Shown: positions 23,620 through 46,488 of the stretch, in pieces | How positions within the stretch are numbered: the first letter of the stretch is position 1 | Layout: the number at the start of each line of letters is the position of its first letter | NCBI GenBank assembly: GCA_002359315.1 | Contig: DEMS01000032.1 | Span: forward strand, 2,438-66,437 | Length of the DNA: 64,000 nucleotides | Source of the DNA: Bacteroidetes bacterium UBA2664 | GTDB taxonomy: Bacteria > Bacteroidota > Rhodothermia > Balneolales > Balneolaceae | Direction of reading: 5' to 3' | The notes under the pieces: generated by a model | What the model saw: the letters and a program-made list of their open reading frames with translations, nothing else | What the model was told of the DNA's origin: nothing | The model's database searches: none | Position numbers and translations under genes: made by a program

Positions 23620-23630
23620 ATCAAACCTGA

Positions 23631-28626: not shown

Positions 28627-28848
28627 ATGCCCAAGGTAGAAACTAAGTCTATATCCCAAGTTCGTAAAGATAATTACTCCCAAGCCGTTGGTGAAGGCAT
28701 TACGGCAATTACCCTGAACGGGGAATTTGTAGGTGTTTTAATCACCTGTGGAAATTCATCACAGGAATTGGCATCCCTTCGCCACAAAAGACTGTTAGAC
28801 AATCCGGTTCACACCATTACCGAACTCACCAAGCAGGTGCTTCAGTAA
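28627..28848 (+). CDS. Small protein, weak Phd/YefM-like pattern
   Basis: SISQVRKD...AITLNGEFVGVLI. Confidence 0.4.
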   Translation: MPKVETKSISQVRKDNYSQAVGEGITAITLNGEFVGVLITCGNSSQELASLRHKRLLDNPVHTITELTKQVLQ

Positions 28849-29861
28849 TGCAGAGCGGTTACGTAAACATATTACCAGATACCCAGCAGCAATACACCAG
28901 AGCACGGGCTGTGGATGCTTCTTTGGGAGCATCCACAGTACCTCTTTCTACTCGACGCCAGGCGTACCCCGGTGTGGAAGGCGTGCTTTCGGCAGCCAGT
29001 AGGCTGGTTACCAAATATACTGGCGACGAGCGCATTCGCTCACTTGCCCTCAAAATTACAAGCACGATTCGGCGACACCGGCTTACAGGACAACCCGACC
29101 TGCGAAACATTGACGCTATTGCCTCTGCCATATACAAGTGGATGGTGCGCAACGTGAATTATGTGCGCGATCCGTGGGATGTCGAGCGTATTCAGTCGCC
29201 CTTTGTCACCATAACCCAACGGGCTGGTGACTGCGACGATCATGCTATTTTAGGTGCAGCCTTATTACAAAGTCTCGGTATTCAAACGGGCTTTCGCATT
29301 GTCTCGCGAACCGGACGCCACTTTGACCATATTTACGCGGTGTACCAATCACCTACCGGTTGGAAATCATTCGATACCACCGTACTGAAATATCCCGGTT
29401 ACGTATTTGACGAGCGGCTCATTAAAAAATCCAGGCACGTCACCAACCAGATGCCTGAAGGCTTGGGGCTTGATCCCATTACGCTACTCACCACGGCTAC
29501 CACAATGGCCAGTACCGGGATGACGCTTAAAAATACCTTGTCCAATATATTTGGAGCCAAAGATAAAGATGAGCGTCAAATGCGCGGAGCCCTGCGAGAC
29601 TATCTCATGCAGCGGGGCGTGCAATCCGAAGTGATCAGTCTTTCCCAAAAAGACAATGCCACCCTTCAGCGCTACGCACAGATTATAGATGAACTTGGAG
29701 CCCCGGCGGTTCAGCAACTGAATCGCTACGGGCAACTTTCCCCGGTTTGGGTTACTCAACAACAAGTAGCAAATAAAAACAAAAAAATGGGGCTCTATGC
29801 CGGTCTTGCCATTGGAACACTGGTTCTGATTGGTGGCGGGTATATGCTTCTAAACAAATAG
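28848..29861 (+). CDS. Transglutaminase-like (papain-fold) protein with C-terminal TM anchor, putative maturation protease
   Basis: YVRDP, GDCDD, HIY, WKSFD give a Cys-His-Asp triad; internal EGLG; C-terminal TM. Confidence 0.8.
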   Translation: MQSGYVNILPDTQQQYTRARAVDASLGASTVPLSTRRQAYPGVEGVLSAASRLVTKYTGDERIRSLALKITSTIRRHRLTGQPDLRNIDAIASAIYKWMVRNVNYVRDPWDVERIQSPFVTITQRAGDCDDHAILGAALLQSLGIQTGFRIVSRTGRHFDHIYAVYQSPTGWKSFDTTVLKYPGYVFDERLIKKSRHVTNQMPEGLGLDPITLLTTATTMASTGMTLKNTLSNIFGAKDKDERQMRGALRDYLMQRGVQSEVISLSQKDNATLQRYAQIIDELGAPAVQQLNRYGQLSPVWVTQQQVANKNKKMGLYAGLAIGTLVLIGGGYMLLNK

Positions 29862-29864
29862 ACC

Positions 29865-30287
29865 ATGAGTAAAAGTGGATTTATCATTCCCTTAGAGGAT
29901 ACTGTCATTGGAGAGGAAGACGCGGTGATTGCCGTAGCCATCAGTCCGGGACTCGGCAACTGGGAAGAAACCGACCCGTGCCGGTATGCCAATCAAAGTT
30001 GTAAAGGCAAAATGTTTGGCAAGCTGAAAAGCTGCCGACGTCAACGCGAGAAAAGTCAGGCGCTATGCAAAGCGCACGAAGCTTCCCTTCAAAAGAAAGC
30101 CCAGTGGGAAGGCCAGCGCGAGGAAATGATGCAGGCGCTCCAGACCAATCTTACCACCACCGCCTCCCAACAGAAAACAGCCAATTCGACCATGAAGTCG
30201 GGTATCGCTGTGGGGGGAGTCGCCCTTACCGGTGCCATTGCTTTGGCGGTTTTAATGCTGAAACGAAAAAAGAAATCTTCTAAATAA
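29865..30287 (+). CDS. Tail-anchored, Cys-containing putative virion membrane protein
   Basis: SGF...PGLG N-terminus; C-terminal TM plus KRKKK. Confidence 0.65.
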   Translation: MSKSGFIIPLEDTVIGEEDAVIAVAISPGLGNWEETDPCRYANQSCKGKMFGKLKSCRRQREKSQALCKAHEASLQKKAQWEGQREEMMQALQTNLTTTASQQKTANSTMKSGIAVGGVALTGAIALAVLMLKRKKKSSK

Positions 30288-30300
30288 GCAGGCCTGTCCC

Positions 30301-30624
30301 ATGACCAAACAACCCAGCGGTTACACCAGTTTTGATCTTCTCAACCAACGAGCAGCTACTGTTACCCAGCCTACCCAAACCAAATTTGGCTCGGCTTTAA
30401 CCTCTATTAGTGACCTCCTAAAGACCGCGACCGATACCGTGGTGACCATAGATGGGGTCGTCAACAAAGGCGGTAACAAGTCTGGAGGCGGGCAACCGGC
30501 GATGCTTTACCCAGGCCAAGGAGCACCTGCTCCCAGCGGCTCGGGAGAGTTGATCAAGTATGCGGGCATAGCCGGAATCGCCATTGGCGGTGGAATCATT
30601 CTACTCAAAGTGCTGAAGAAGTAA
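30301..30624 (+). CDS. Tail-anchored putative virion membrane protein
   Basis: PSGY N-terminus; Gly-rich C-terminal TM plus KK. Confidence 0.65.
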   Translation: MTKQPSGYTSFDLLNQRAATVTQPTQTKFGSALTSISDLLKTATDTVVTIDGVVNKGGNKSGGGQPAMLYPGQGAPAPSGSGELIKYAGIAGIAIGGGIILLKVLKK

Positions 30625-30626
30625 GT

Positions 30627-30896
30627 ATGCAAGCAGGACGAATTTCAACATTTCTGGATGGAGGCGTTCCAGGTGGCCATGCTCCTATGGTATTGCCAGA
30701 GGTAGAAGACACTTCCTACGAACAGCCTGATATGCAGGTCATCGAAATGGGCGAAGGCGAAGAGCCTACGGCCAAAAAACTATGCCAGCGACTTCAGGAG
30801 CAGCCGATTTCACTTTCGCAGTGGATTCGGGATAACCAGAACACCTTAATGATTGCGGGCGGCCTTTATGTGGGCTATCGCTTGCTAAGGAGGTAA
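30627..30896 (+). CDS. Tail-anchored putative virion membrane protein
   Basis: C-terminal LMIAGGLYVGY-RLLRR. Confidence 0.6.
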   Translation: MQAGRISTFLDGGVPGGHAPMVLPEVEDTSYEQPDMQVIEMGEGEEPTAKKLCQRLQEQPISLSQWIRDNQNTLMIAGGLYVGYRLLRR

Positions 30897-30897
30897 A

Positions 30898-31581
30898 ATG
30901 AACGCGCAATCAGGATATATCGACACCGGACTCGGGCAGCTCAACCTGTCCAGCAATATCATAAGCTCGGAGGCGGTAGAACTTCGCATCATCGGACGAA
31001 ACCCCGCCTCGGGGAACCCGCCCAGTGGGGTTCCGTTTTCCCTCGATCTTGAAATTGAAACTTTCCGAAACTGGGCTAAAGTGATTTTTGTGCCGTTTAT
31101 GGCCAGATGGGGGCAATGCCCCGACGCCCTGGTGGTGGTTCGCTCGGAGCAGACTGGATCGGTGTTAGGCTTCCAGCGTTTCCAAACCTCGATGATGGAC
31201 GGATGCCGCGCACAGGGACGAGTTCTCTTTGACCGCTCGTTTGTTCCCACCTCAGCCCATAAAGTAATTTTTGAAGTGTATCCCGTTGATGTGGAAATGA
31301 GCAGTATTTCCGCTTCCGATCTCATTGCAAAATCCACGCCTATTTCTCTCGACCTTGACCAGAAAACCGGCGAGCAGTCGGGGGTGTATTCTCCCCCCAC
31401 AGAGTCGTGGTACAAAATGCCCGAACTTGGGCCAGGTAATGCCCTTGGGGAAGTTAACACGCTACTCAAACGGGTAATCATTATATCATTTGCTGGCGCG
31501 GGGCTTTATTTCTTAGCCCCCATGCTCCCCGGACTTCGGGCAGGCATCAAAGCTTTAGCCCCAAAAGTAGGTTCCGAATGA
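30898..31581 (+). CDS. Beta-rich protein with C-terminal TM
   Basis: QSGYIDTGLG N-terminus; VIIISFAGAGLYFL TM. Confidence 0.65.
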   Translation: MNAQSGYIDTGLGQLNLSSNIISSEAVELRIIGRNPASGNPPSGVPFSLDLEIETFRNWAKVIFVPFMARWGQCPDALVVVRSEQTGSVLGFQRFQTSMMDGCRAQGRVLFDRSFVPTSAHKVIFEVYPVDVEMSSISASDLIAKSTPISLDLDQKTGEQSGVYSPPTESWYKMPELGPGNALGEVNTLLKRVIIISFAGAGLYFLAPMLPGLRAGIKALAPKVGSE

Positions 31582-31973
31582 GATCTGGGTATGTACCACA
31601 TACCGGCTCCGGCCTACACGGCATGGACGATTACCTGCAGCGCACCTCTCAGAACGCTTTCAAACTGTTTGCGGGCAAACTTCAGAGCGCCACAAGCGGT
31701 CGCCGTGGCCAGCTTGCAACGATGGGACTCAACCTGGCCAACCTAACCACCAGTAAAGCAGGCATCAACAAGGTATATGAGCAAAACGCCGGAGTCATTG
31801 ACGACTACTTCGAGTATGTGGATCTGGTGGCACTATCAGAAAAACTGGGCGTGGAAGAGGCGGTCTCGACGGGCGTGTCTCGCTCGCTGCTCAAAACCGG
31901 ATCAATGATTCTAATTGGCATGGCCATCGGGATGGCAGGACAACGAATATTTACAGGAAAAAGGAACCAATGA
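31578..31973 (+). CDS. Tail-anchored putative virion membrane protein
   Basis: MRSGYV...SGLHG; C-terminal TM. Confidence 0.6.
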   Translation: MRSGYVPHTGSGLHGMDDYLQRTSQNAFKLFAGKLQSATSGRRGQLATMGLNLANLTTSKAGINKVYEQNAGVIDDYFEYVDLVALSEKLGVEEAVSTGVSRSLLKTGSMILIGMAIGMAGQRIFTGKRNQ

Positions 31974-32281
31974 CATTAAAGAAAGGCGACTCAGGACAAC
32001 AGGTACTCCGGCTGCAAGCAGGACTGCAAAAAGCGGGCTTCGCGCTCCCTCAATACGGTATTGACGGCAAGTTTGGCCCCGAAACCCAGTCGGCGGTCAT
32101 GCAGGCCCAGCGCCGATTTTCCCTTCCGGTAACCGGAGTAGCTGGCCCGGACTTGCTGGCTAAATTAGGCGCTACCGGTCTTCCTTCCACCCAAAATTCA
32201 GCGGTTTTGAAAAAGACCGTGCTTGCTGGCATTGCTATCGGAGTGCTGTTTGTAATCGCCAAGAAAATGAGGAAACATTGA
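31970..32281 (+). CDS. Peptidoglycan-binding domain protein with C-terminal TM
   Basis: LKKGDSG.QV.RLQ..L...G...DGKFGPET..AV...Q.....VTGVAG. Confidence 0.88.
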   Translation: MTLKKGDSGQQVLRLQAGLQKAGFALPQYGIDGKFGPETQSAVMQAQRRFSLPVTGVAGPDLLAKLGATGLPSTQNSAVLKKTVLAGIAIGVLFVIAKKMRKH

Positions 32282-32282
32282 G

Positions 32283-33536
32283 ATGGATAGCCAGAACACC
32301 ATGAGCGCCAAAGAGCTGGCAACCCTCAACATCAAAGGCATTAAAATAGCAAGCCCATACGGGGCACTTCTTGGAGAGCCAGAGAAAAATGCGGTCATTT
32401 TTATTTGGGGCGAAAAAGGAGCCGGAAAATCCACCTTCAGTTTGGGTCTGGCCAACGCGTTAGCCCAACACGGAAGAGTGGAATACATCCCCGCCGAAGA
32501 GCATTTCGGAAAAACCTTGGTGGATCGGGTAAAACGCTTAAACGCTACCCACTCGAACCTCAATTTCACCAAATGGAAATCCCTTACCAGCCTCAAAGAA
32601 ATTCTACTTAAAAATGGATCGGCATTCTGCGTGCTTGACTCCATCACTGTGATCGAAGCCAACGATAAAATGACGGTCGAACTGGCCCAGTGGTGCCGGG
32701 AGCAAGGTATTGGGTTCATCATGGTGGCTCACGCAACTAAGGACGGCAAGTACAAAGGCAATACCAGTATTGCCCACGAGTGCGACATCGAAATCAAGGT
32801 CACCAAAGAGGGCCTCGCCGAAACCGAAAAGAACCGCTATCAGGTGCTCAGCTCCATCGAGGTTCCCTTTACCTCCACCCGAAACAATGAATATGAAAAA
32901 GTAAAAACGGCTCCCGTGAAACGAGAAAACCCTGTTGACCTGCCCTTTAGCATTTCACTCAAAGAAATCGACAAACTCCACAAACTTCGCTCATGGAAAC
33001 GGGTGAATTCCCTGCTCGGCTCAAAGATGCCGTGTTACTCCAAACAGCATTCCGGGGAGTCCGAGCGGGCAACGCTGAGCATTCGCTACGTGCCGGACTA
33101 CTACAACAAACGCTATATCGTAGAGCTGCTCATTGACGGGGAGCTCAAAACCCAGATTTGCACCGAAGGAGCTAAAGGCGGGTTTGCCGCTTCCTGGGCC
33201 CAGCTGGTGAAAAAGCACGGCAACCTGGAAGTGCAGATTCTCGCCCAGGATCACGCGAAGAAAGTGTTGGGGGCACGAGAATACCGAAGGCAGGAAAAGC
33301 TTCAGAGTAAGAATTCAGATTGTCCGCCAGCAAGAAAATCAAACACAAAGAAGAAGCCAAAGCGAAAGCCTACTCCACCCACCAAGAAAACGGCCAAGAA
33401 AAAACCGGCGGTAAAGAAAACCAAACCGGTACCTAAGCCTAAAGAGCTGGCAACTCCAAAGCAGTCCGTGGATCTGGAAGCCGCTCGAAAAAGCCAAGCC
33501 AAACTCGACGCCTTTTTAGAAAAAGTACTTAGCTAA
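32283..33536 (+). CDS. RadA/Sms-like RecA-fold ATPase with Lys/Pro-rich C-terminal tail
   Basis: GEKGAGKST, AEE, VLDSI, HATKDG, HECD, KNRY; KKPKRKPTPPTKK tail. Confidence 0.75.
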   Translation: MDSQNTMSAKELATLNIKGIKIASPYGALLGEPEKNAVIFIWGEKGAGKSTFSLGLANALAQHGRVEYIPAEEHFGKTLVDRVKRLNATHSNLNFTKWKSLTSLKEILLKNGSAFCVLDSITVIEANDKMTVELAQWCREQGIGFIMVAHATKDGKYKGNTSIAHECDIEIKVTKEGLAETEKNRYQVLSSIEVPFTSTRNNEYEKVKTAPVKRENPVDLPFSISLKEIDKLHKLRSWKRVNSLLGSKMPCYSKQHSGESERATLSIRYVPDYYNKRYIVELLIDGELKTQICTEGAKGGFAASWAQLVKKHGNLEVQILAQDHAKKVLGAREYRRQEKLQSKNSDCPPARKSNTKKKPKRKPTPPTKKTAKKKPAVKKTKPVPKPKELATPKQSVDLEAARKSQAKLDAFLEKVLS

Positions 33537-33539
33537 GCG

Positions 33540-36500
33540 ATGCCAGTAGTTAAAACAAATATCGACCAGATTACGCACCTGTCCACCGGCGACTTTGATC
33601 ACTGGCTGGGCGACTGGGACTCCGATGGAATCGTCAATATTGATGATCCCAACCCGCTTACTCCGGGCGATACTGCCCCTGTGTCTGAGGCCGAACTGGC
33701 CCCGCAGATCAAGGCGGTGATTGAGACGAAGAACAACTACATCCCAGCCCTGAAGAAAGTCATGAAAGGCCTAATCGGGATGAATTTGGCGCTGGTCGTC
33801 AAGGGTCGCATTAAAGAAGTGTATTCCACTTTAGGGAAACTTATTCGCAAGCGGTTTCCGTTTACGGAAAAGATTGCCACCAAGTCTGGAGAAAAATACA
33901 CAACCGGCCTGACCGATGTGGCAGGCTGTATGGCGATTGCCGAAACGCAGGCGCAGGTGGATCAGATTGTGGAGCGTATCCAGTCGGGCGAGCTGGGTGA
34001 GGTGTGGGAACACGAAGACAAATATAAACATCCTGCAAACGGCTACCGCGCCCATCATTTTATCCTCGTAGTGGACAAGCTGTACCCGGTCGAAATCCAG
34101 GTAAAAACCAAACGGATGTCCATGATCTCGGCGGCCTCACACCAGCCCTATAAAGTGGGCCAGCTTAACGGAGCGCTGCTGGAAGAATTGACCCAGCTCG
34201 CGTGGAAAGCTGACAAGGGCGACACCGAATCGACAGAAAAATTGGAGCCGTACTTAGCAGATCTGGACGCTCTTGAAACTCAGCTTACTCTTCGATCTAA
34301 TCCAAGTGGAGAACTTCAGCAACTTCAGGCAGATTTTGAGCAGACCATAGGCAAACTGGCACTGGCGTTTCAGCTGGATAAGTTTCCAGCTGAGTACAAG
34401 CAGGAAGCCCTGGAGCTTTTCAGGGCACACGGGCGCATCATCGGCGTCGATTTTGATGGGGTATTTAAACAAGCCTCTACCAAAGAATCTAAGCCGATCA
34501 AGGAGCCCAAAAAGAAATCAGGCCAATCAATTTTTAGGTTTAGTGACACCGAATTGTCGGAATTTGCGCCCATCAAACTAACGGCCTCCGAGCGTCGCAA
34601 GGCCAACGAAGCGGCTATCGCCGTACTTCAAAAGGAAGACCGCGCGATTACCAAATCCGATATTGAAGTACTTCGTACGTACACCGGGGCGGGTGGTTTA
34701 GGATACACCGAATCCACCGAACATTCCAAGCGGGGTTTGTTGAATGAGCACTACACGTCCTACCCCGTGGTCAAACTCATCTGGGACAAACTTCAACAGA
34801 TGGGTGTTACGGGCGGCAATATTTTAGAGCCAGGTTCCGGCGTGGGTAACTTTGCCGGATTCCTTCCCGACCGCGAGAAATTCCGCATGGTCATGATCGA
34901 ACGCTCGGCCATTAGCTCCCGCATAGCACGTCTTTTGTACCCGATGCAGACCGTGCGCCACGAGAACTTTGCGGGCACCGATCTATCCCTGTATAACCTG
35001 ACCGGCGTGGTTGGAAACGTGCCCTTTGGGGACCTGAAAATTCATACCTCCCGCGACCCGCTGGCCCCGCTTAGCCCACGCATTCACGACTATTTTATTC
35101 TGAAATCACTGGACGCATTGAAGCCCGGTGGTTTCTTGGCCGTAATTACCTCAACCGGCACGATGGACAAAAAAGACCCGTCCATTCGGCAGGCTATGAT
35201 ACAACGTGCCCGCTTTGTCGGGGCCTACCGGTTGCCTTCAACGGCGTTTAAAGACAACGCCGATACCACGGTAACCACCGATATTCTGTTTTTCCAGAAG
35301 TATGGGGAGCACCAGGGAGCAATCCATCCGGATGTGGACTCCAAGCTCAACCGACTTTTTGCACAGGAAGATCTGATTGAAAGTCAGGTATCCTATAATG
35401 GTGAAACCTATACCGCTTTTTACAATCCCTTCTTCAAAGAGCATCCCGAGCATGTGTTAGGCGAACATATTCAGGGGCACCATGTACAGTTTTATTCCCG
35501 CATGGGCGTTAAAGGCGAGCTTTCCGAAGGCCTCATTCAAAGGGTGCTTTCTGACGGACTAACTTTTCCTTACGCGCTTCCGGGCAAGATGCCATTGTAC
35601 AACATACCCGATGACGGGATTATGCTCGACCTTCCAAGATCATACCATCCGGGGAATATCGTTTTCCACGAGAACCATTTTTACGAGAAACAGCGACGGT
35701 TTTTCAAGCGGCTTACGCTCAAAGGCGGCTCGGGGCTGGAGACCCGCATCGGCTCGGCTTGCCAGCTACTCGATAAATACGACGACTATATTACCGCACT
35801 GGCACAGGAAACCAGCGAAAAGGACGCCCTCCGCGCTGAGTTCAAGCAGTTGCTTGCGGGTCACATAAAGCAGTATGGTATTCCCGATGAAGACGAGGAC
35901 ATCCGCAAGGTGTTCAAGTTCGACAACCGGCTCTACAAGCTCACAACGCTCGTGAAGCGAGATCCGCTTAACGAGGAACTCGTGTATGCGGACATCATCG
36001 ACGCCGATTCCATGTTCAACCGAAACTACGTGCCTGCGGTCAAAGACTCCGATGATCTGGCTGAGCTGGCCATGTTCGGGCGCAGTATTGGTGAGACCTT
36101 AGATATTGACTTCTACCAGTCGGTGTACAAAGGGGGAACGGCGAGCAAAGAGGATCTGGAAAAAGCATTGGAAGATCACCCTGACTTTTACTGGAATCCG
36201 GCCACCGGAAACCACGAATTTCGCTACCAGTACCTGTCTGGTAACGTGCGCGAGAAACTGCAACTGGCCCAGGAGCACGAGCTGGAAAAGAATATTAAGG
36301 CACTCGGGGAAGTCGTGCCCGAATGGATCGACGTGTATAACATCACCGTGGACCCGCAGCACGTGTTCACCTATTTGCCCGCCAAAGCCATTGAAGAGTG
36401 GATTAAAGATGAAATGAATTACGATAAGGTGGAAATCGGCCTGGTCAAAGACAAAGCCGATCTGGGTAACCGGTTCTACATGAAGCTTCGAAAATGGGGC

Positions 36501-39500
36501 CGGTACATTTCTACGGGCGATGAGACCCCCGACGACGACAACCTCGGCTGGGGCGAGACGCCGTTTACGAAAATCATTACCTCTTACATTCAGGACAGCA
36601 CGTTTCCACTGAAGTTCTATGATGAGGACGATACCCTGATGCCGTCGATGACGCTCAAAGAGGCGCAATCCATGAAGGGCGAACGGGGCCAAATGCTCAT
36701 CGAGCGAGCGCGAAAAATACAGCGCCAAAACAACAACCGGATGCTCACGCACGTGCCCAAAAAGTTCAACAACTGGGTGCGCACCAAAGCTTCGTCCGAA
36801 GTCCGGAGCCTGATCGAATCCGCCTACAACCAGACCTATAACGCCGTAATCAACCCGCCCTTTGACGGGCGCACCCTTCGCGTTCGCGGCATGAGCGATA
36901 CCTTCTACGGGGTGAAAGACTTTACCGTGTACAAGCACAATCGCGCTATTGCCGAAAAGTTGGTCTGGAACGGTAAGGGTGCCAACTGCCACGATGTGGG
37001 GGCAGGGAAAACACTCGCTTCCATTATCACCTCCCAAGTGCTGCTCCAGCAGGGAGCCGCCCGAAAACCCATGTTTGTCGTGCCTGGAAAAGTGCAGGAA
37101 AAATGGGTGGAAGAATACCTGATGCTCTTTCCTGACGCCAAAGTCCTCAACATGAAAATGGCCTCTGGCGACAAGCACAAAGAACTTACGATGGCCCAGC
37201 TCTACAACTGGGACGCTATCTTTATCGCTGACCACGCTTTTAAATCGCTTCCGCTATCCCCAGCCGAACAGGCTCGTATTTTTCAAGAGCGCATCGACTA
37301 CTTCAACCAGATGTTGGAGAATTTCGAGGATCTGCTTGAGGAAGACGAGGCGATCTCGAAAGCGGTCAAGACCTCCATGATGAAACGCATGGAAAAGCAG
37401 ATGGAAGAATGGGAAACCAAACTCCGCAATGTGGCCCATGCCAAACGACTCGAAACCGATATTTTCTTTGACGAGCTGGGCGTGGACTGCCTGTTCTTTG
37501 ACGAGGCGCATTTCTACAAAAACGCCCTTGGTTCAGCCAAAGCCGCCAAGCTGGGAATCTCGGCAAACAAGCCTTCCCAGCGCGCCGAAGACGCCCTGCA
37601 AAAAACACGGTGGCTGTTCAGCAAAGTGGGCCATAAAAACGTGTTTGTCCTTACAGCGACTCCGGTAGTCAACTCTCCGGTGGAGGTATGGCACATGCTC
37701 AACCTGTGCGCCCCGGATTTGCTGACCAAATACGAAATTGAAAACCTCGACAACTTCATCAACCTGTTTGTCCGGGAAGAAGAAAAGATCGTCAAAAAGA
37801 CCAACGGGGAATACCGCTCCGAGCGCGTCGTGGCCGGGTACTACAACCTGCCGGAAATGCGTAAGATCATTGACGAGGTGATGGACATCAAGAGCTACGA
37901 TCAGCTCATCGGGTTTTACAAAGAGTTTCCCGATTACATTCAGGATGAATCCGGAAATACGATTAAAGGAAAAGACGGAAAGCCCAAGGTGCTCGAACCC
38001 AAATTCAAGCGCCCCAAGGCCAGCACCCGCAACGTGATTATTGAACCCAGCGAGCTGCATAAGCTTCTTTTTGATGACATTATCCTCCGAGCCAACGAGG
38101 TCATTGCCTGTATGAAAGACCGGCAGTGTGAGACCCGCGACAACTTCCTGGTAATTACCGGCGATGGTAGTAAGATTGCCACCGATCTGCGGGTGTACGA
38201 CAAAGATTTTGAAGGTATTGATCGCTCATACCTCAAGCTTGGAGCGATGGTGGAAAACGTGGCAGCTTCCTATGGTGCCCGTTCCAATCCGGCTCCCGAA
38301 ATGGTGCCCGAAGACCTATACGGCGACTACTTTCACCGGCCTGGCAGAGGACAATTGGCCGTCACTCCTCCGCACTTGCGAGAGAATCCTTCTCATATTG
38401 AAGTCATCACCAGCAAGGGCGTGGTAAAAGAAAAAAGTGGCTACTGGGTGGTGTGGGATGAAAAGAAAGAGGTTTATGAGCCCTTGCATATACTGGAGCC
38501 CAAAAAGGCCGAACACACGTGGAGCGAAGGCATCTTTGGCAACGAAAAAGAAGCTACCGAGCGCGCTAAAAAGCTAAACGCGGAGTGGGAGCAGATCAAA
38601 GCCAGTCGATCCAATCCAACCAGCCCAGCCATTCGCAACCAGATTATTTTCTGCGACTGGATCAGTCTTCATCAGTCACAGGGAGGTAGCTTCCATCAAC
38701 TCATCAAATCCGAGCTGGTCAAAGCTGGAATCCCCAAAGAACAGATTGCGATCATCAACGGGTCCATCATTGGCACGAGCAAAAACGGGGATGATTATTC
38801 CGTCAGTAGCAAAGACGATAAGGAAGCATTAAAGAAAGAAGTGCAGGATGATTTTAACCAGGGCAAGTACCGCGTGGTGATTGGTAACCAGTCGATTGCC
38901 GAGGGGATGAACCTTCAGAAGTGGACCACCGACATGCACCATATGGATGTGCCCTACACACCTTCGCAAATCCAGCAGCGCAATGGGCGCGGGCTTCGTC
39001 AAGGCAATCAGTACTCAGAAGTACAAATCCATTACTACCTGATGCAGGACTCTTTTGATCAGTACCGGCTGGAACTCGTCTCCAAGAAACAGAGCTGGAT
39101 TGATGACCTCTTCTTTGGCACCGGGCGTGAAGTCTCCACCGGTGGCGACTCGGAGTCGCTGGAATACGAGCAAATGGTTGCTGCTACCAACTCCGATCCA
39201 CGTGTAAAACAATTCTTTGAGGCTTTAGCGCAAAAGAATGTGCTCGACGACCGGATTGATAACCTTGAATCCGAGGTTCAGCGACTCCAGGCCAGCCAAG
39301 TGCAGGCAACTACTGATATCCAGGGAAAACAGGATCGCATGAAAAGCGTGGTAGAGCGCGAAACCGCCCTGCAAAACTCGAAGCTTCCCGATAACGCTGA
39401 AATCGCACTAAAGGAGAACCTGTTTGAGGCGCAGTACGGGTGGAACGGCGAGCCGTACCAACTCGATATCCAGTTGAGCTCCGACGCAAAACGCATCTCC

Positions 39501-40769
39501 GGCTACCGCATGAAAACCGTGCTCGATGTGCCCGATAACAACGCCAACGGGCGGGTGTGGTTTCACCTGATCCCAGACAGCAATATCCCTGACCGCTCGT
39601 TCTACAACAAACAGACGTGGGGTTCCATCAAACGCATGGCCTCCAAAGAGCTGGCCACCACCTTTGGGTGGACGCTGGAAGAAAAGACGGGGCAAGGAAA
39701 ATCCATCTCCGGCAACCTGGGCAACATCATTGCCACTGAGGAAGATTTTTACAATGAATACGGCATCGACATTGAAGTCGAGAAAGCTAAAAAAGACGAG
39801 GCCGGAAACGAGCAAAGCTTCAAGGCCATCAAAGAGTCCGCCGGGATGTTTACCATCAAAAAGTGGCAGCCGATTATCACCCGAAAACTGGCGGAGCTGT
39901 TTCTGGAACTCGAAAAAGCATGGATCAGAACTTCGGAATCACGAATGGAAATTCTAAGCAGTGAGCTGAAGCAAACTGAGAAAACACTGGCCGAACTTCA
40001 AAAGGTGCTGGCGTCCACAAAGGGCGAACTGGAAGCGGCCAAAACCGCTCGGGAGAACAACCAGAAGACCGTGATCGAACTCAACGATGTGGTCAACCAG
40101 CTGGTGGCGGTGAGCTACGACGACCGGAACGAACTGTATGAAGAGATCAACCGGATCGCCCCGAAATACAAGATCCGCAAGACCATTACCGTCCGTGATG
40201 TTGGGGCGCTGAAAGGCAATACCCCCAAAGGCGCGCCCCAGCTTCGTGAGAACAAAGCCCACAATATGCCTGGAAAAACATCCAAACGGCATGGCGTACT
40301 AAAAACCCTCTACGAAGAACCGCTGGTGTATTCCGGCATCGTCAAGGAACTGGAGTACATCGACGCCAAAGGCTACATGCAGCGCATGGAAGCTGAAAAG
40401 GATGATCTGGCAATGATCATTAACGCCAAGGGCACCACTATTTATGTGTTTCCAACAAACTTAATGAGGCTCTCAAAGGGAGCCTACAATGACCCGAAAG
40501 CCGCCGAAATGTTTGAGGAGTTTCATCATTTCCCGGCAGACGACTACGACTATGAGCTGTTTCCGCCTGCGGGCGAGAAACTGATCAGTGCCGGTTACGC
40601 CGACCGCATTATGTACGTGAGCGATAAGATTATCTACGCCGATGACGAAAAAGGCAAGGACAATCACTATTTCCACTACTTCGATGCGGGCAAGCGACCG
40701 GTGTTTAAATACGGTGATGTGTACATCATCGCTAACGTCAACATAGACGGCAGGGGCATTCTTAATTGA
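33540..40769 (+). CDS. 2409-aa multidomain protein: RelA/SpoT-like synthetase, N6-adenine methyltransferase and SNF2 helicase (DarB-like)
   Basis: GRIK, DVAG, GYRAHH, EIQVKT; LEPGSGVG, GNVPF; HDVGAGKT, DEAH.YKN, TATP, EGMNLQ, QRNGRG.RQG. Confidence 0.88.
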   Translation: MPVVKTNIDQITHLSTGDFDHWLGDWDSDGIVNIDDPNPLTPGDTAPVSEAELAPQIKAVIETKNNYIPALKKVMKGLIGMNLALVVKGRIKEVYSTLGKLIRKRFPFTEKIATKSGEKYTTGLTDVAGCMAIAETQAQVDQIVERIQSGELGEVWEHEDKYKHPANGYRAHHFILVVDKLYPVEIQVKTKRMSMISAASHQPYKVGQLNGALLEELTQLAWKADKGDTESTEKLEPYLADLDALETQLTLRSNPSGELQQLQADFEQTIGKLALAFQLDKFPAEYKQEALELFRAHGRIIGVDFDGVFKQASTKESKPIKEPKKKSGQSIFRFSDTELSEFAPIKLTASERRKANEAAIAVLQKEDRAITKSDIEVLRTYTGAGGLGYTESTEHSKRGLLNEHYTSYPVVKLIWDKLQQMGVTGGNILEPGSGVGNFAGFLPDREKFRMVMIERSAISSRIARLLYPMQTVRHENFAGTDLSLYNLTGVVGNVPFGDLKIHTSRDPLAPLSPRIHDYFILKSLDALKPGGFLAVITSTGTMDKKDPSIRQAMIQRARFVGAYRLPSTAFKDNADTTVTTDILFFQKYGEHQGAIHPDVDSKLNRLFAQEDLIESQVSYNGETYTAFYNPFFKEHPEHVLGEHIQGHHVQFYSRMGVKGELSEGLIQRVLSDGLTFPYALPGKMPLYNIPDDGIMLDLPRSYHPGNIVFHENHFYEKQRRFFKRLTLKGGSGLETRIGSACQLLDKYDDYITALAQETSEKDALRAEFKQLLAGHIKQYGIPDEDEDIRKVFKFDNRLYKLTTLVKRDPLNEELVYADIIDADSMFNRNYVPAVKDSDDLAELAMFGRSIGETLDIDFYQSVYKGGTASKEDLEKALEDHPDFYWNPATGNHEFRYQYLSGNVREKLQLAQEHELEKNIKALGEVVPEWIDVYNITVDPQHVFTYLPAKAIEEWIKDEMNYDKVEIGLVKDKADLGNRFYMKLRKWGRYISTGDETPDDDNLGWGETPFTKIITSYIQDSTFPLKFYDEDDTLMPSMTLKEAQSMKGERGQMLIERARKIQRQNNNRMLTHVPKKFNNWVRTKASSEVRSLIESAYNQTYNAVINPPFDGRTLRVRGMSDTFYGVKDFTVYKHNRAIAEKLVWNGKGANCHDVGAGKTLASIITSQVLLQQGAARKPMFVVPGKVQEKWVEEYLMLFPDAKVLNMKMASGDKHKELTMAQLYNWDAIFIADHAFKSLPLSPAEQARIFQERIDYFNQMLENFEDLLEEDEAISKAVKTSMMKRMEKQMEEWETKLRNVAHAKRLETDIFFDELGVDCLFFDEAHFYKNALGSAKAAKLGISANKPSQRAEDALQKTRWLFSKVGHKNVFVLTATPVVNSPVEVWHMLNLCAPDLLTKYEIENLDNFINLFVREEEKIVKKTNGEYRSERVVAGYYNLPEMRKIIDEVMDIKSYDQLIGFYKEFPDYIQDESGNTIKGKDGKPKVLEPKFKRPKASTRNVIIEPSELHKLLFDDIILRANEVIACMKDRQCETRDNFLVITGDGSKIATDLRVYDKDFEGIDRSYLKLGAMVENVAASYGARSNPAPEMVPEDLYGDYFHRPGRGQLAVTPPHLRENPSHIEVITSKGVVKEKSGYWVVWDEKKEVYEPLHILEPKKAEHTWSEGIFGNEKEATERAKKLNAEWEQIKASRSNPTSPAIRNQIIFCDWISLHQSQGGSFHQLIKSELVKAGIPKEQIAIINGSIIGTSKNGDDYSVSSKDDKEALKKEVQDDFNQGKYRVVIGNQSIAEGMNLQKWTTDMHHMDVPYTPSQIQQRNGRGLRQGNQYSEVQIHYYLMQDSFDQYRLELVSKKQSWIDDLFFGTGREVSTGGDSESLEYEQMVAATNSDPRVKQFFEALAQKNVLDDRIDNLESEVQRLQASQVQATTDIQGKQDRMKSVVERETALQNSKLPDNAEIALKENLFEAQYGWNGEPYQLDIQLSSDAKRISGYRMKTVLDVPDNNANGRVWFHLIPDSNIPDRSFYNKQTWGSIKRMASKELATTFGWTLEEKTGQGKSISGNLGNIIATEEDFYNEYGIDIEVEKAKKDEAGNEQSFKAIKESAGMFTIKKWQPIITRKLAELFLELEKAWIRTSESRMEILSSELKQTEKTLAELQKVLASTKGELEAAKTARENNQKTVIELNDVVNQLVAVSYDDRNELYEEINRIAPKYKIRKTITVRDVGALKGNTPKGAPQLRENKAHNMPGKTSKRHGVLKTLYEEPLVYSGIVKELEYIDAKGYMQRMEAEKDDLAMIINAKGTTIYVFPTNLMRLSKGAYNDPKAAEMFEEFHHFPADDYDYELFPPAGEKLISAGYADRIMYVSDKIIYADDEKGKDNHYFHYFDAGKRPVFKYGDVYIIANVNIDGRGILN

Positions 40770-40797: not shown

Positions 40798-41301
40798 ATG
40801 AAAGAACGCGTGTTCGCCAAGAACCCTTCCGAGCTACAAATCATCGAAAACCCAAACAAACGACGCAGTAACATGGCAAAACAAAGCAAAATCACTACCG
40901 AGAAGGCGGTCTCTGAATTCAAGCAGCAGGCTATCACCGCCGGATACATTCTTGGTGGGCAGGCTGTAGCAGCGCAGGTTAATGCCCTGGCCGTCCCCAT
41001 GCTGACAGGCAACGCATCTGCTACCATTCAACAAGCAACACGAGCGGGTATTCCACTTACCGCCGGTGTGCTCCTAACCCTTGTGACCAAGAACAAACAT
41101 CTTCGCGGTCTGGCAATGGGTATGGGCGTGCAAGGCGTAATGGAAGCCATCAAATTTATCATGCCCGACTGGACGCCCCAGCAAGGCCTGATGGATGGTT
41201 CCGGGTACGTGTATGACGGGGTCCCTCAGATTCCGGAAACCACCCATCATGTAGATGATGTGGAAACTTCAATGGAAGTGAGTAACACCATCGAAGTATA
41301 A
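40798..41301 (+). CDS. Membrane protein preceding the putative capsid genes
   Basis: Basic N-terminus with KNP/ENP, Gly/Ala-rich hydrophobic helices, GLMDGSGY. Confidence 0.65.
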   Translation: MKERVFAKNPSELQIIENPNKRRSNMAKQSKITTEKAVSEFKQQAITAGYILGGQAVAAQVNALAVPMLTGNASATIQQATRAGIPLTAGVLLTLVTKNKHLRGLAMGMGVQGVMEAIKFIMPDWTPQQGLMDGSGYVYDGVPQIPETTHHVDDVETSMEVSNTIEV

Positions 41302-41391
41302 AAATATCGACTCATAGCTCTGATTGCAGAGGGGGTACTGGTAATACCGAAACGGCTAACAGCCAACTTCTAAACCCTTAAAAACACAGTT

Positions 41392-42003
41392 ATGAGCAAC
41401 AAAATTAGCAAAAAGGCTTTAGTGCCTGCAACCGCACGCATCAAGACCTACTACGACACCAAGCAGGTCGTACAGAACGACAATGTTATCAACTTTTTCC
41501 CGGCCAATGCCACCCGTAAAGTCACCCGTGACAACTACGTGAACAACCCGTTTCCGGGTTCCATGAAGCGCCGAATTTTAGGCTTGTCCTTTGAACTCAC
41601 CAAGCAGTTCATCGAAGACGACGCGGCCAACGGCATCGACGCGCGAGCCATTGTGAACGGCCTCAAAGATGCGGCCATCTTACTTCAGGCCGACAACGAC
41701 AACAAGGAATTCCTCCGCGCCCCAATGAGTGAATTCTCCAATTTTGCTGGCACCGGTATCCAGCTTGCTTCGGCAACGGACAATACCGTGGACGCCGTGG
41801 CTTCTTTCAAGAGAGTAGCCACCATCAAGAGCGCGGGTGAATACCGCTTGGCCGATCCGTTTGATCTGGCTGTAAACCAGACGGTTTCCCTTGCCGTGCA
41901 CTTTGACGACGCTTCGGTTTTCCCTTCGATTGAAAACTGGACGCAATCAGGTCAAGGACAACTTTGGCTCCGGGCTTCTCTGGTAGTCGCAGAAGTTGAG
42001 TAA
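41392..42003 (+). CDS. Putative single jelly-roll major capsid protein
   Basis: Beta-strand pattern YYDT..NFF..N..P..ILGLSF...PFDLAVNQTVSLAVHF...LRASLV; followed by terminator; fold inferred only. Confidence 0.5.
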   Translation: MSNKISKKALVPATARIKTYYDTKQVVQNDNVINFFPANATRKVTRDNYVNNPFPGSMKRRILGLSFELTKQFIEDDAANGIDARAIVNGLKDAAILLQADNDNKEFLRAPMSEFSNFAGTGIQLASATDNTVDAVASFKRVATIKSAGEYRLADPFDLAVNQTVSLAVHFDDASVFPSIENWTQSGQGQLWLRASLVVAEVE

Positions 42004-42012
42004 TCCATCCCG

Positions 42013-42055
42013 TCCCGCCGGTTTCGGTTCGCCGGTTCCGGCGGGATTCTTTTTT
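42013..42055 (+). terminator. Intrinsic terminator after the putative capsid gene
   Basis: TCCCGCCGG...CCGGCGGGA followed by TTCTTTTTT. Confidence 0.75.
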
Positions 42056-42087
42056 CCAATCAACCCTGACTACCTCAAAGCAACGCC

Positions 42088-42864
42088 ATGAAGATTATCT
42101 CCAATTTTTTACCTCCTAAAGAAAGTTCGGCCTACAATCCGGCCAAGTCGGTTGAGGTGCAACCGGGAGCAACGGCTCACCTTACCATGAACGGCATGGG
42201 TGGAGAGCGCTACGGCATCCGAAAGATCCTCCCGTTCAGCGCCAACATGAATGCCATTTTGATCTCGGCCCGCCTGAATGAAGACCTCTACCTGTTTCGC
42301 GATGTGCAGCTATCGGTGGTGCACAACCTGTTCAAATCCATTGACGGGCTTTTTGCGCCCTTCATCATTCAGAAGAACAACCACATCGTTTTTGAACTCA
42401 CCAATACCGGTGCCGCTAAACAGACCGTCAACATTCAGCTTGTCGGTTATGACCAGTTTGCCCTATCTAAACTCAGCGCGGCCTACCAGCAAATTGGAGC
42501 TTCGGTTCCCGTACCCCGGTTTCTGTATGGACATAGCACGGTTCCGGCAAGCGGGCTCAACATTGATCTGGGCGTGAAAAGCAAAAGCGTGGACGTGCAG
42601 GTTCGGCGCATGGCCATGAGCAGCAACCAGCCCGGAACAATTACCGCCTCGATGAAAGTGTACAACACCACGGTTCGCGATGAAGTATTCCTGGAGCAGG
42701 TGAACGATGAGTTCAACGACAAGTACATCAATGTGCCTTTTGTGGTGGGATCGAACGTTCCCTTTGATGTGTACGCTTCCAACTACGGTGCCCAGCCTGC
42801 AGAGGTAAGTTTCCTCTGCGAAAGCTACGTGCAGGCAAAAACCGGATTCATCCCAGCGGAGTAA
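42088..42864 (+). CDS. Putative double jelly-roll-like capsid protein (internal duplication)
   Basis: Two halves end PFIIQKNNHIVFELTN..TVNIQLVGY and PFVVGSNVPFDVYASN..EVSFLCESY. Confidence 0.5.
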   Translation: MKIISNFLPPKESSAYNPAKSVEVQPGATAHLTMNGMGGERYGIRKILPFSANMNAILISARLNEDLYLFRDVQLSVVHNLFKSIDGLFAPFIIQKNNHIVFELTNTGAAKQTVNIQLVGYDQFALSKLSAAYQQIGASVPVPRFLYGHSTVPASGLNIDLGVKSKSVDVQVRRMAMSSNQPGTITASMKVYNTTVRDEVFLEQVNDEFNDKYINVPFVVGSNVPFDVYASNYGAQPAEVSFLCESYVQAKTGFIPAE

Positions 42865-42866
42865 TC

Positions 42867-43280
42867 ATGCTAAACGATCTGATTAAAGTACTCTGCGAGC
42901 TGGCGGCCAACGTGGAAGCATTGGTTAAAAACCTGCAAAAAACTGAAGGCAGCCAGCCCAGTCAGGCCCGGATTGCCTCCTCCATATCCCCGGTGATGAA
43001 ACATGGCGAGCAGCCTGTTCGCCTGGTCAACGAAAACCCGCATCGTTTGGGAGTTATTATTCAAAACAACAGCGAAGGCGAGCTTATGATTGCCCTGGAC
43101 AGCCAGCGGATCTCCGACAAGTACTACACCTTCAAACTGCGAGCGGGTGAAACCCTGCACTTTGACCTACGCCGGTTTGGTGAGCTCTACAAAGGCGGTT
43201 TTATGGGTCTGTGGGATGAGGCGACCAATCCCGGAGCCGAGTCCAAAGCCCTGGTAACCGAAATCTTTTGGACAAGCTAA
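42867..43280 (+). CDS. Putative vertex/penton-like beta protein
   Basis: N-terminal helix then LVNENPHRLGVIIQNNS..LMI...L.AGETL. Confidence 0.45.
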   Translation: MLNDLIKVLCELAANVEALVKNLQKTEGSQPSQARIASSISPVMKHGEQPVRLVNENPHRLGVIIQNNSEGELMIALDSQRISDKYYTFKLRAGETLHFDLRRFGELYKGGFMGLWDEATNPGAESKALVTEIFWTS

Positions 43281-43281
43281 G

Positions 43282-43860
43282 ATGAGCAAGATTAGCGGGC
43301 AGGAATTTGGTCTAAACGAGGTCTTCAAGATGCGGGTGGTCAGCGGAATGCTTGTGGACGGCTCCATTCTGATTTCATGGGCCACCGGGGAACCGGCATC
43401 GAGCCAAATTGACTGGGGCTGGGACGATTCGGTTCCGTTTCAAACTCCGGAAGTACACATCGAGCCGGAGGAGATGGTACGATACCACCAACTCTACCTG
43501 CCTCAAACTCTGGTCGATCAGCGGCATTATTTCCGCGTGCGCTCGCGAACCGAGCACGGAAAATCGGGAATCTCGGACATCTACATGGTGGTCGTTCCTC
43601 CGGATCTGGCCATTAAAAACCGTGGGCGAATGGCCACTGAGATTGAATTGGAACTTGTGCTGGTCAAAACCACCCGCATCGACTGCACGAACTTTCCGGC
43701 TACTTTTTTGTCGGGCTACCGCACCGAACCCATTTCCTCCGATCAGCCTGCCTTGATTGAACATGAAAACACAGAGCCTGCTGCCTTGGATAAAGTCGCC
43801 ACAGTGAATCCGGATACGAACAGCTCGCTGTCCACCAGAATCACCTATACCATTACATAA
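43282..43860 (+). CDS. Fibronectin type III-like domain protein
   Basis: ISWATGEPASSQIDWG...H.L.L..........YFRVRS...G. Confidence 0.65.
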   Translation: MSKISGQEFGLNEVFKMRVVSGMLVDGSILISWATGEPASSQIDWGWDDSVPFQTPEVHIEPEEMVRYHQLYLPQTLVDQRHYFRVRSRTEHGKSGISDIYMVVVPPDLAIKNRGRMATEIELELVLVKTTRIDCTNFPATFLSGYRTEPISSDQPALIEHENTEPAALDKVATVNPDTNSSLSTRITYTIT

Positions 43861-43886
43861 ACCCATATTTGAATAATTAATACTCC

Positions 43887-45290: not shown

Positions 45291-45845
45291 GTGAGTAGCG
45301 CCCTGTCCATATCCTCCCAGCTCAGCTACCTTCGGGTGAAGGGCATTATGGGGCACTTCTATGAGGCTTCTCGGGCAAATAATGTGCCGGTTTCCCTGCT
45401 TTTGGCCATCGCCTCCAGGGAAAGTCATATGGGATTGGCGTTGGACAGCAACTGGACGGGCGACAACGGAAACGGCATCGGCATCATGCAAATTGACCGC
45501 CGGTATCACTCGGACTTTACGAGCTCCCATGCCAACAGCGACCACCGCGCCAATATCCACTATGGCAGCAAGTTTCTGGCAGACCTGATCAGAAAGTTTG
45601 GAGGTAAGTTTACCCCAGCTGTGGCCGCATACAATGCCGGATACACTAAAGTTAGGAATACCATCAGTGCTGGCATTGATCCCAATCTGGTTACCACCGG
45701 GCAAAATTACGCCACCGATGTGCTCCGCCGAAAAGAAATCGTGGAATCGGTTATGGGTATTTCCAAAGCGTCCACGGCCAGCATGGTAATTCTGCCACTA
45801 ATCATCACAGGATTTATTTCCTACCAAATCTTTAACACTCAATAA
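45291..45845 (+). CDS. Lytic transglycosylase (SLT/goose-lysozyme-like) with C-terminal TM
   Basis: AIASRES, GIMQID, AAYNAG, NYA.DV. Confidence 0.88.
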   Translation: MSSALSISSQLSYLRVKGIMGHFYEASRANNVPVSLLLAIASRESHMGLALDSNWTGDNGNGIGIMQIDRRYHSDFTSSHANSDHRANIHYGSKFLADLIRKFGGKFTPAVAAYNAGYTKVRNTISAGIDPNLVTTGQNYATDVLRRKEIVESVMGISKASTASMVILPLIITGFISYQIFNTQ

Positions 45846-45851
45846 ACAAAT

Positions 45852-46238
45852 ATGAAATCATCTTCCGGATATATCTACAGCGAGGAAAGCTCCCCCGGTT
45901 TGGGGCGCATGATGCTCGACCCGACGCTACCCACCGAGTTGAATACGGCTATCCAACCGGTCTCTTCAATCGGTACAATTCGACCAACCATACCCATTTC
46001 TCGGGGGCTTTCTCCCAGAATCAGGAAACCGGTTCTGCCAAGGTTGCCCAAGATCAAACCACCCAAAGTGACTCCGGTGGTACGAGATTTGGCCAAAAAA
46101 CCAACAGCAGCTGTCCAACCCGCAACAACTAAAAGCGAGCCGGTGGCCACCCAGAAAAAACCGATGAACAAGAAGATGATCGCACTTGCCGGGGCCGGTA
46201 TTGTTGGAGCCGGAATCCTCTTTAAAATCTTACGCTAA
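45852..46238 (+). CDS. Pro/Lys-rich tail-anchored protein
   Basis: SSGYIY...PGLG; C-terminal TM. Confidence 0.65.
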   Translation: MKSSSGYIYSEESSPGLGRMMLDPTLPTELNTAIQPVSSIGTIRPTIPISRGLSPRIRKPVLPRLPKIKPPKVTPVVRDLAKKPTAAVQPATTKSEPVATQKKPMNKKMIALAGAGIVGAGILFKILR

Positions 46239-46254
46239 CCTAACCTGAAAACCC

Positions 46255-46488
46255 ATGAGTAAATCAAGCTATACCTCTGATAACGGCCTTGGATGTGGCT
46301 GCGGATGCAACGGAGCCGGAATCGGTTCTTCCCCCGTCGTGGACGTTAAAAACGCCGAAGCCGAAAACACCAAAATGGACTTGGTGGATACGGCCAAAAA
46401 GTACATCAATGGCGACGTGCCGATGAAGTACAAAGCCGCTGCCATTGCCCTCGGTGCTGGCTTTTTGTGGCTAAAGTTCAAGAAATAG
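46255..46488 (+). CDS. Small tail-anchored protein with CGCGC
   Basis: SSY..NGLGCGCGC; C-terminal TM plus KFKK. Confidence 0.65.
   Translation: MSKSSYTSDNGLGCGCGCNGAGIGSSPVVDVKNAEAENTKMDLVDTAKKYINGDVPMKYKAAAIALGAGFLWLKFKK

Follow-up and report, generated by a model that had tools for sequence, protein, structure and literature searches.

The window, as we call the whole 64,000-nucleotide stretch of contig DEMS01000032.1 from Bacteroidetes bacterium UBA2664 (assembly GCA_002359315.1, Balneolaceae), contains an integrated provirus related to SSIP-1 (Salisaeta icosahedral phage 1). Judged by sequence homology, the region 28848..46488 is the virion, or particle-building, module of this provirus. 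Its first open reading frame (ORF; ORFs are named here by their first nucleotide), 28848, encodes a transglutaminase-fold enzyme, and short tags recur close to the N-termini of a row of small proteins with a predicted C-terminal membrane anchor. From conservation patterns and by analogy with other viruses, the enzyme is tentatively predicted, with slightly less than even confidence, to be a maturation protease that would cut these tail-anchored proteins at a G-[LM]-(x)-G tag.

The enzyme passes the cut-off of the Transglut_core family (PF01841), and only transglutaminase-like families match it. Its Cys129, His161 and Asp176 stand in that order and are followed by E-G-L-G at residues 204-207, just as the original prediction, made by inspection of the same DNA, had described. 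Among distant relatives of the enzyme (the 150 best representatives), the catalytic Cys is present in 150, the His in 149 and the Asp (or Glu) in 149. Two solved structures, 3isr and 4u65, match with E values below 1e-3 (3e-4 for 4u65), and both are labelled putative cysteine proteases. The fold and the Cys-His-Asp triad are also those of LapG and the BTLCP proteins. LapG is a bacterial enzyme that cuts the N-terminal region of its substrate at one site and needs its Cys to do so (PMC3032545); unlike the window enzyme it is cellular, periplasmic and regulated by LapD, and it cleaves between two alanines of an adhesin.

Most long forms of the enzyme (107 of 118) end in a hydrophobic tail, and standalone short forms exist as well. 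Among viral records picked with an unrelated marker domain, the enzyme is found in 31 of 33, including each of the 22 with a completeness of 90% or more. Additional copies of capsid genes in G060 and G061 turned out to belong to further proviruses, each of which has its own enzyme. The SSIP-1 homolog, gp34, is a structural protein according to its GenBank listing. With a threshold of E 1e-10, 3869 cluster representatives match the profile of the enzyme, and some of these may come from cellular genomes. In a tree computed in quick mode, which is poorly resolved and was not otherwise used, the window enzyme groups loosely with relatives from Balneolota and Bacteroidota.

Ten ORFs of the module (28848, 29865, 30301, 30627, 30898, 31578, 31970, 45291, 45852 and 46255) end in a hydrophobic segment, followed in eight of them by at least two basic residues. 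The original prediction likewise counted ten, with a Gly-rich anchor; in 30627, however, the segment is weak (mean hydropathy 1.24), and in 45291 it contains a single Gly and is followed by no basic tail. None of the ten, judged by hydropathy, pairs a basic N-terminal region with a hydrophobic core, in line with the claim that signal peptides are absent; 29865 has one hydrophobic patch, preceded by acidic residues. The N-terminal motifs quoted for these proteins, SGY or a variant, in most of them followed by GLG or GLHG, are all present in the sequence, as is the internal GLMDGSGY of 40798, in which the two tags of the membrane proteins occur in reversed order near the C-terminus. The set is less uniform than had been thought, however, because 30301 lacks GLG, 31970 and 45291, which are anchored and lie in the same operon, have neither motif, and 30627 has a compact form, S-x-[YF]-[LI]-D-G, that had escaped notice.

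S[GS][YF] occurs within residues 1-10 of seven of the ten anchored ORFs and of none of the eight other ORFs of the module, compared to 16 of 2288 ORFs and one of 78 tail-anchored ORFs in the host. S[GS][YF] and a GLG-type motif are found together in five of the ten, but in none of the 2288 host ORFs or the 78 host tail-anchored proteins, and the best of 2000 shuffles yielded one. The patterns were chosen after viewing the same window proteins, and orthologs and distant relatives are therefore the fairer test. The codons beneath both motifs vary freely, so that the constraint acts on the protein; a DNA-level signal as the origin of the tags was rejected on this ground.

The ortholog sets were thinned to less than 85% identity, and frameshifted or mis-started rows were removed family by family (L037, L036, L101, L051 and L113). 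They refine the motifs to S-x-[YF] and G-[LM]-(x)-G, conserved at the protein level but looser than originally written. S-x-[YF] is kept in all orthologs of 29865 (13/13), 30898 (9/9), 28848 (10/10) and 45852 (4/4), but in only four of 14 orthologs of 31578 and three of nine of 46255. The middle Gly of SGY is poorly kept (3/13 for 29865, 3/9 for 30898). G-[LMF] is retained throughout 29865 (13/13), 30898 (9/9) and 31578 (14/14), with a variable next residue (GLG, GLEG, GLAG, GLHG, GLQG), and exact G[LM]G in eight of 13 orthologs of 29865 and eight of nine of 30898. Between the tags lies a spacer of variable length and sequence; the conserved part of the protein sets in directly after the second tag. 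In the compact motif of 30627 the S, D and G are retained in 11 of 11 orthologs; both tags of 45852 are present in four of four, at an identity below 30% in places; the second G[IL]G site of 46255 is kept in nine of nine, and GLM[DE]GS-x-Y of 40798 in all 14 distinct rows. Distant Balneolota proviruses use dialects of their own, such as SG[FY]...ELG in the second G060 provirus and SGFL[SHA]D in G057.

Comparison of the protein sequences of distant relatives indicates that the Leu-Gly tag is family-wide, whereas the Ser-aromatic tag is mainly specific to the Balneolota. Over 33 lineages, 33 of 134 anchored ORFs have G[LM]G among their first 40 residues (5.9 in shuffles), as do 21 of 331 other ORFs (9.6); these counts include L065 and L074, archaeal loci judged cellular, which were dropped from the leader-likeness, Asn-Pro and tandem-tag analyses. 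SG[YF] occurs in 15 of the 134 (2.8 in shuffles), largely in Balneolota lineages, the window among them, and an aromatic residue at positions 2-7 shows a mild excess (66 of 130 compared to 44.8). Leaders from one virus resemble each other modestly more than they resemble those of other viruses (p 0.009, the pairs not being independent). For tandem Leu-(x)-Gly units the enrichment is about seven-fold in anchored proteins (33 sites compared to 4.9 in shuffles of 124 proteins) and enzyme tails (44 compared to 6.3 in 110 tails), and two-fold elsewhere. The tag persists, often in tandem, at internal module junctions of fused proteins. Hydrophobicity is higher after the tag than before it (p 5e-14 for enzyme tails and 4e-5 for anchored proteins, the rows not being independent). 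In 28 of the 110 enzyme tails, which form one related subgroup, an amphipathic helix begins immediately after the second tandem tag; it may resemble the lytic helix that is freed from adenovirus protein VI. Cys-Gly-Cys-rich stretches, possibly metal or lipid attachment sites, were noticed straight after Leu-Gly tags in the window (46285-46310) and in the G031, G057 and G061 proviruses.

The enzyme carries such a tag itself. Just after the catalytic domain, [LM][GS] is seen in 103 of 115 long forms, compared to 62 in shuffles, and the two stretches of the protein that come next show no excess. In the M-P-E-G-L-G linker of the window enzyme, L-G is kept in ten of ten orthologs and the Met in six. 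Most simply, this GLG looks like the leader of a tail-anchored gene that became fused to the enzyme. That the tag was kept after fusion agrees with a cut site, and likewise with a docking motif that does not have to be terminal.

A second tag, overlooked in the original prediction, marks the other proteins of the module. Five R[ES]NP sites occur in two window proteins, one in the ATPase 32283 and four in the 2409-residue protein 33540, compared to 0.016 per 1000 residues in the host; ENP is present in 40798 and in 42867 (position 43032). Among relatives [RK][RKES]NP is found 69 times in 313 non-anchored ORFs (4.7 in shuffles) and three times in 130 anchored ORFs (0.8). Each of the two protein classes of the module thus bears, almost exclusively, a tag of its own: Leu-Gly on anchored and basic-Asn-Pro on non-anchored proteins. 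SSIP-1 has both. G-[LM]-[GA] tags are found in its gp34, ORF35, ORF36, gp37, ORF39, ORF52 and gp53, and a basic-Asn-Pro tag in the structural proteins gp40 (as RENG), gp41 and gp43, in the last two as RENP. Unlike those of the window, the N-termini of the SSIP-1 homologs show no S-x-Y/F leaders. The basic-Asn-Pro tag offers the enzyme another possible substrate.

In the mechanism that we propose, the tail-anchored proteins would insert through their C-terminal anchors, without a signal peptide, so that the leaders and the catalytic domain would share the capsid-facing side of the viral membrane. The aromatic tag, S-x-Y/F in this provirus, would help to hold the leader against the jelly-roll shell during assembly. 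The enzyme would then cut at or just after the Leu-Gly tag, which would loosen the link between membrane and shell, free the enzyme from its own anchor and expose new, often hydrophobic, N-termini for entry. A maturation protease is favored since the enzyme is intact and universally present and its closest solved relatives bear the label of proteases; LapG, moreover, provides a precedent, and the tags mark module junctions.

Adenovirus and vaccinia virus serve as working precedents for such processing, with unrelated enzymes. The adenovirus protease belongs to clan CE and has the order His-Asp/Glu-Cys, and the vaccinia protease I7 is unrelated to the window enzyme. Several virion precursors of adenovirus are cut by its cysteine protease at (M/I/L)XGG↓X or (M/I/L)XGX↓G (PMC4246237), and protein VI, which contains a lytic peptide, binds in the hexon cavity in competition with core protein VII (bioRxiv 10.1101/857581). 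The likeness lies in the proposed Gly-motif cleavage of several virion precursors by a virus-encoded Cys enzyme. The analogy, drawn originally, has its limits: the window enzyme has a different fold and the catalytic order Cys-His-Asp, outside clan CE; the Met, Ile or Leu that the consensus requires is missing from all five window GLG sites, although Leu stands at that position in 13 of 41 sites of relatives; and adenovirus has no internal membrane. In vaccinia virus the membrane protein A17 recruits the double jelly-roll scaffold D13 by way of a Phe-rich pocket, and D13 is released when A17 is proteolytically processed (PMC8971458). That is a eukaryotic virus with a transient scaffold and one main membrane substrate, unlike the row of small tail-anchored proteins described here. 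The C-terminal sorting systems GlyGly-CTERM and LPXTG combine an N-terminal signal peptide with a sorting motif just before the C-terminal anchor, whereas the window motifs are N-terminal and hydropathy reveals no signal peptide.

Several observations weigh against the cleavage of leaders. The tag is short and loose, and its exact form is found in only 33 of the 134 anchored ORFs mentioned above. In many relatives it sits 2-6 residues from a Met, so that a cut would remove almost nothing. An in-frame Met precedes the L[GS] of the enzyme in 49 of 115 distant relatives (9.8 in shuffles); the GLG of the enzyme, offered originally as a sign of self-cleavage, is explicable as the start of a fused gene and is thus weak evidence for it. 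Small relatives of 16-19 kb keep the enzyme, yet several of their anchored ORFs have no tag in the 62 residues inspected (in L268 about three of five, by eye). Excess amphipathicity after the tag is absent in six window proteins (p 0.15-0.87) and in the anchored set. As a candidate substrate, the basic-Asn-Pro tag is more sharply enriched than the Leu-Gly tag. A complete relative lacking the enzyme, which would allow a joint loss of enzyme and tags to be examined, was sought through the enzyme-independent marker and none was found, the two records without the enzyme being 41% and 52% complete.

Some of these points lead to a different explanation, which we consider rather unlikely although a serious contender: both tags would be docking or sorting motifs that are never cut, their aromatic and Leu-Gly residues binding a pocket under the capsid protein or each other, and the enzyme would act elsewhere. 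Docking explains the very short leaders, with the tag often a few residues from the start Met, and the tandem repeats, as in multivalent binding motifs, better than cleavage does. The reversed order of the tags near the C-terminus of 40798 also agrees with docking, as do the sphaerolipoviruses, related membrane viruses in which a vertical single jelly-roll capsid is built on membrane-proximal proteins, with no processing mentioned in the sections consulted (PMC6414509). On the other hand, retention of the tag right after the soluble enzyme domain and the hydrophobic step that follows the tag fit a cut site at least equally well, and docking leaves a universally kept enzyme without a substrate.

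The sharper enrichment of the second tag suggests that the enzyme might instead be a maturation protease acting on the basic-Asn-Pro tags of core or cargo proteins (the ATPase, the 2409-residue protein and the gp44 homolog), with Leu-Gly serving to dock. The tag is present in structural proteins of SSIP-1, and a protein of 2409 residues might require splitting. This is nevertheless unlikely. The enzyme is mostly membrane-anchored and is joined to its anchor by a Leu-Gly tag, not by Asn-Pro; the basic context suits plain DNA binding, and most proteases disfavor Pro after the scissile bond. The neat division of two tags between two protein classes would also suit a ligase or acyltransferase that welds the membrane to the shell, for example by joining a tag-derived N-terminal Gly or Leu to capsid proteins or to Asn-Pro-tagged core proteins, and the transglutaminase fold (PF01841) does include transglutaminases and acyltransferases; such an activity is highly unlikely, however, because the closest solved relatives are labelled proteases and the tags contain no conserved Gln or Lys. 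Least probable is a role of the tags in membrane insertion or translation start, or their origin as a by-product of composition, unrelated to assembly: they do lie near the N-termini of proteins without signal peptides, and the non-anchored ORFs also show a two-fold G[LM]G excess, but the codons vary fully, composition-keeping shuffles fall short of the counts, the two tags never occur together in the host tail-anchored proteins, and 31970 and 45291 are anchored without them, which speaks against an insertion signal in particular.

Two attempts to obtain further evidence on the enzyme were uninformative. When the catalytic domain (residues 36-198) was modelled in complex with the leader of 30898 (residues 1-30), the score was 0.00 and the controls did not fold, and the model is not used as evidence. 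Fusions of the enzyme to the marker domain (L062, L064, L067, L068 and L176) have linkers that are short or resemble frame artefacts, and nothing was drawn from them.

If leader cleavage is the correct interpretation, a wider proposal can be made, which is possible but doubtful: SSIP-1-like viruses would have evolved proteolytic maturation of the adenovirus and poxvirus style independently, with a transglutaminase-fold protease and a two-address code, in which Leu-Gly leaders on membrane proteins would be cleaved so that the shell is freed and membrane-active helices are unmasked, and core and cargo proteins bear the basic-Asn-Pro tags. In a published evolutionary model, a PRD1-like phage ancestor of the eukaryotic jelly-roll viruses gained its maturation protease from a eukaryotic element (PMC6260650). 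A different, phage-encoded protease in bacterial jelly-roll viruses would be a convergent solution, and it would assign a role to a core gene found in a wide group of viruses. The tailless jelly-roll bacterial viruses of this group are numerous and barely studied, SSIP-1 being the only isolate found. This kind of virus and the enzyme superfamily are already known. The published literature searched, which left most subscription journals out of reach, yielded no mention of the shared tags, of a transglutaminase-fold maturation enzyme or of a link between a transglutaminase-like enzyme and the maturation of jelly-roll viruses; nor were the tags of SSIP-1 or a protease role of gp34 found described there, the original SSIP-1 paper lying outside that scope. 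A term search of Yutin 2018 (PMC5894146) returned neither 'transglutaminase' nor 'protease'. The question of cleavage is directly testable, because SSIP-1 has been isolated and close copies of the provirus are present in named strains of Gracilimonas, Rhodohalobacter and Fodinibius.

SSIP-1 is a tailless, membrane-containing phage with T=49 and a circular genome of 44 kb (PMC6260650, PMC6356626). Among 50,697 phage records, both the enzyme and ORF 41392 strongly match this phage only. Its gp34, ORF35, ORF36, gp40, gp43, gp44, gp45/46, gp47 and ORF54 have homologs in nine window ORFs, which stand in the same order, and the syntenic gp34-gp40-gp43-gp44-capsid-lysozyme module of SSIP-1-like tailless viruses, with homologs of the capsid genes gp45/46 and gp47, is thus present in the window. 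The model of ORF 41392 (pLDDT 83) is most similar to a chain of HHIV-2 (Z 8.0, rmsd 3.2 Å over 110 aligned residues), although a Z of this size can reflect a common arrangement; that of ORF 42088 (pLDDT 83) matches the major capsid protein of STIV (Z 10.7, rmsd 4.5 Å over 231 residues). The SSIP-1 homologs and the predicted jelly-roll folds make the context of an assembling particle, assumed in the original prediction, well supported. From the homology and the ten tail-anchored ORFs we infer an icosahedral particle with an internal membrane. Unlike SSIP-1, the provirus has one gp45/46 homolog instead of two; no second single jelly-roll paralog was matched in the window or the assembly, whereas a related provirus in G060 carries two such genes. 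Chains of the sphaerolipoviruses HCIV-1 and HHIV-2 are among the fold matches of the window capsid models. The Sphaerolipoviridae and their relatives are characterized by two single jelly-roll major capsid proteins and a packaging ATPase of the A32/FtsK type; one single and one double jelly roll are predicted here. The sections consulted on HCIV-1 and HHIV-2 describe neither a protease nor a shared leader tag (PMC6414509). The window ATPase is nearer to RadA/Sms (E 4e-13) than to Pox_A32 (19.9 bits, cut-off 22.8), both matches lying below their cut-offs. Among the ORFs listed for small relatives, none stood out as a RadA/Sms-like ATPase.

The homolog of the 2409-residue protein in SSIP-1, gp43, is listed as structural, and the protein may therefore be carried in the particle. 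Its C-terminus (40482-40766) is a family marker domain of about 95 residues that has no Pfam match. By pattern search this domain is present in 36 of 78 related loci, joined to very different N-terminal parts, and it is a candidate cargo-targeting domain. The features of the provirus are collected in Table 1.

Table 1. Features of the virion module and borders of the provirus in the window
Feature	Position	Strand	Remarks
tRNA gene (CAT anticodon), left attachment site	22146..22220	-	
Regulatory and replication genes (repressor-like, excisionase-like, primase, helicase-like)	22431..27349	.	Roles except primase inferred
Transglutaminase-fold (papain-like) enzyme with C-terminal membrane anchor, SSIP-1 gp34 homolog	28848..29861	+	PF01841 33.5 bits (cut-off 23); 39.6% identity to gp34
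Sites in enzyme 28848	Cys129 29232; His161 29328; Asp176 29373; SGY 28854-28862		
M-P-E-G-L-G linker after the catalytic domain (E204-G-L-G207)	29451..29468	+	Likely leader of a fused tail-anchored module
Tail-anchored protein	29865..30287	+	SGF 29874, GLG 29949
Tail-anchored protein	30301..30624	+	SGY 30316, without GLG
Weakly anchored protein	30627..30896	+	Compact S-x-[YF]-L-D-G at 30645-30662
Tail-anchored protein, SSIP-1 ORF35 homolog	30898..31581	+	SGY 30910, GLG 30928
Tail-anchored protein, SSIP-1 ORF36 homolog	31578..31973	+	SGY 31584, GLHG 31611
Peptidoglycan-binding domain with tail anchor	31970..32281	+	PF01471; no leader tag (internal control)
RadA/Sms-like P-loop ATPase, SSIP-1 gp40 homolog	32283..33536	+	RENP 32922-32933
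2409-aa multidomain protein (RelA/SpoT-like, methylase-like, SNF2 helicase), SSIP-1 gp43 homolog	33540..40769	+	
R[ES]NP sites in the 2409-aa protein	34293; 38280; 38379; 38607		
SSIP-1 gp44 homolog	40798..41301	+	ENP near N-terminus (40846); GLMDGSGY 41185-41208
Predicted single jelly-roll capsid protein, SSIP-1 gp45 and gp46 homolog	41392..42003	+	27.6% identity to gp45, E 1e-13
Predicted double jelly-roll protein, SSIP-1 gp47 homolog	42088..42864	+	
Tail-anchored lytic transglycosylase, SSIP-1 ORF54 homolog	45291..45845	+	PF01464; no leader tag (internal control)
Tail-anchored protein	45852..46238	+	SGY 45864, GLG 45897
Small tail-anchored Cys-rich protein	46255..46488	+	SSY 46264, GLG 46285; second G[IL]G at residues 22-24
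Tyrosine integrase, probably of this provirus, just inside the right tRNA copy	62531..63706	-	Position and strand relative to virion module same in two related proviruses
Second tRNA copy, right attachment site	63933..64000, ending at 64007 beyond the window	-	75 bp, 97% identical

The element has a GC content of about 51%, compared to about 40% in the host. Its close relatives are found mostly in genomes of Gracilimonas, Balneola, Rhodohalobacter and Fodinibius; viral contigs scanned with a capsid profile yielded no relative. In contrast to SSIP-1, the element is integrated at a tRNA gene and carries metal-resistance genes. These genes, for mercury resistance (ArsR, MerT and MerA-like) and cation efflux, occupy about 15 kb (47743-62392) between the virion module and the integrase. 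They are absent at the corresponding place in relatives, the match to which ends at about 47.6 kb, and the two related proviruses that have an integrase at the same place lack this cargo.

Another, diverged copy of the left end of the provirus begins directly beyond the second copy of the tRNA (from 64000 to the end of G000:C37), and the proviruses therefore stand in tandem. Four to five repeats of about 119 bp, each starting with the 3' end of the tRNA, are present at 16301-16712 and 22023-22159 and are probably scars of repeated integration at the tRNA. In the Rhodohalobacter and Fodinibius copies (L034, L044, L047 and G003), restriction or defense-like genes replace the primase module in the 10 kb upstream of the virion module. 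A weak match to the enzyme (E 1e-4) was seen in Geoglobus acetivorans pleomorphic virus 1 (BK065156.1, 7818-8078). To the left of the tRNA in the window, an AbiEii nucleotidyltransferase gene and its upstream partner gene are found at 19108-20497.

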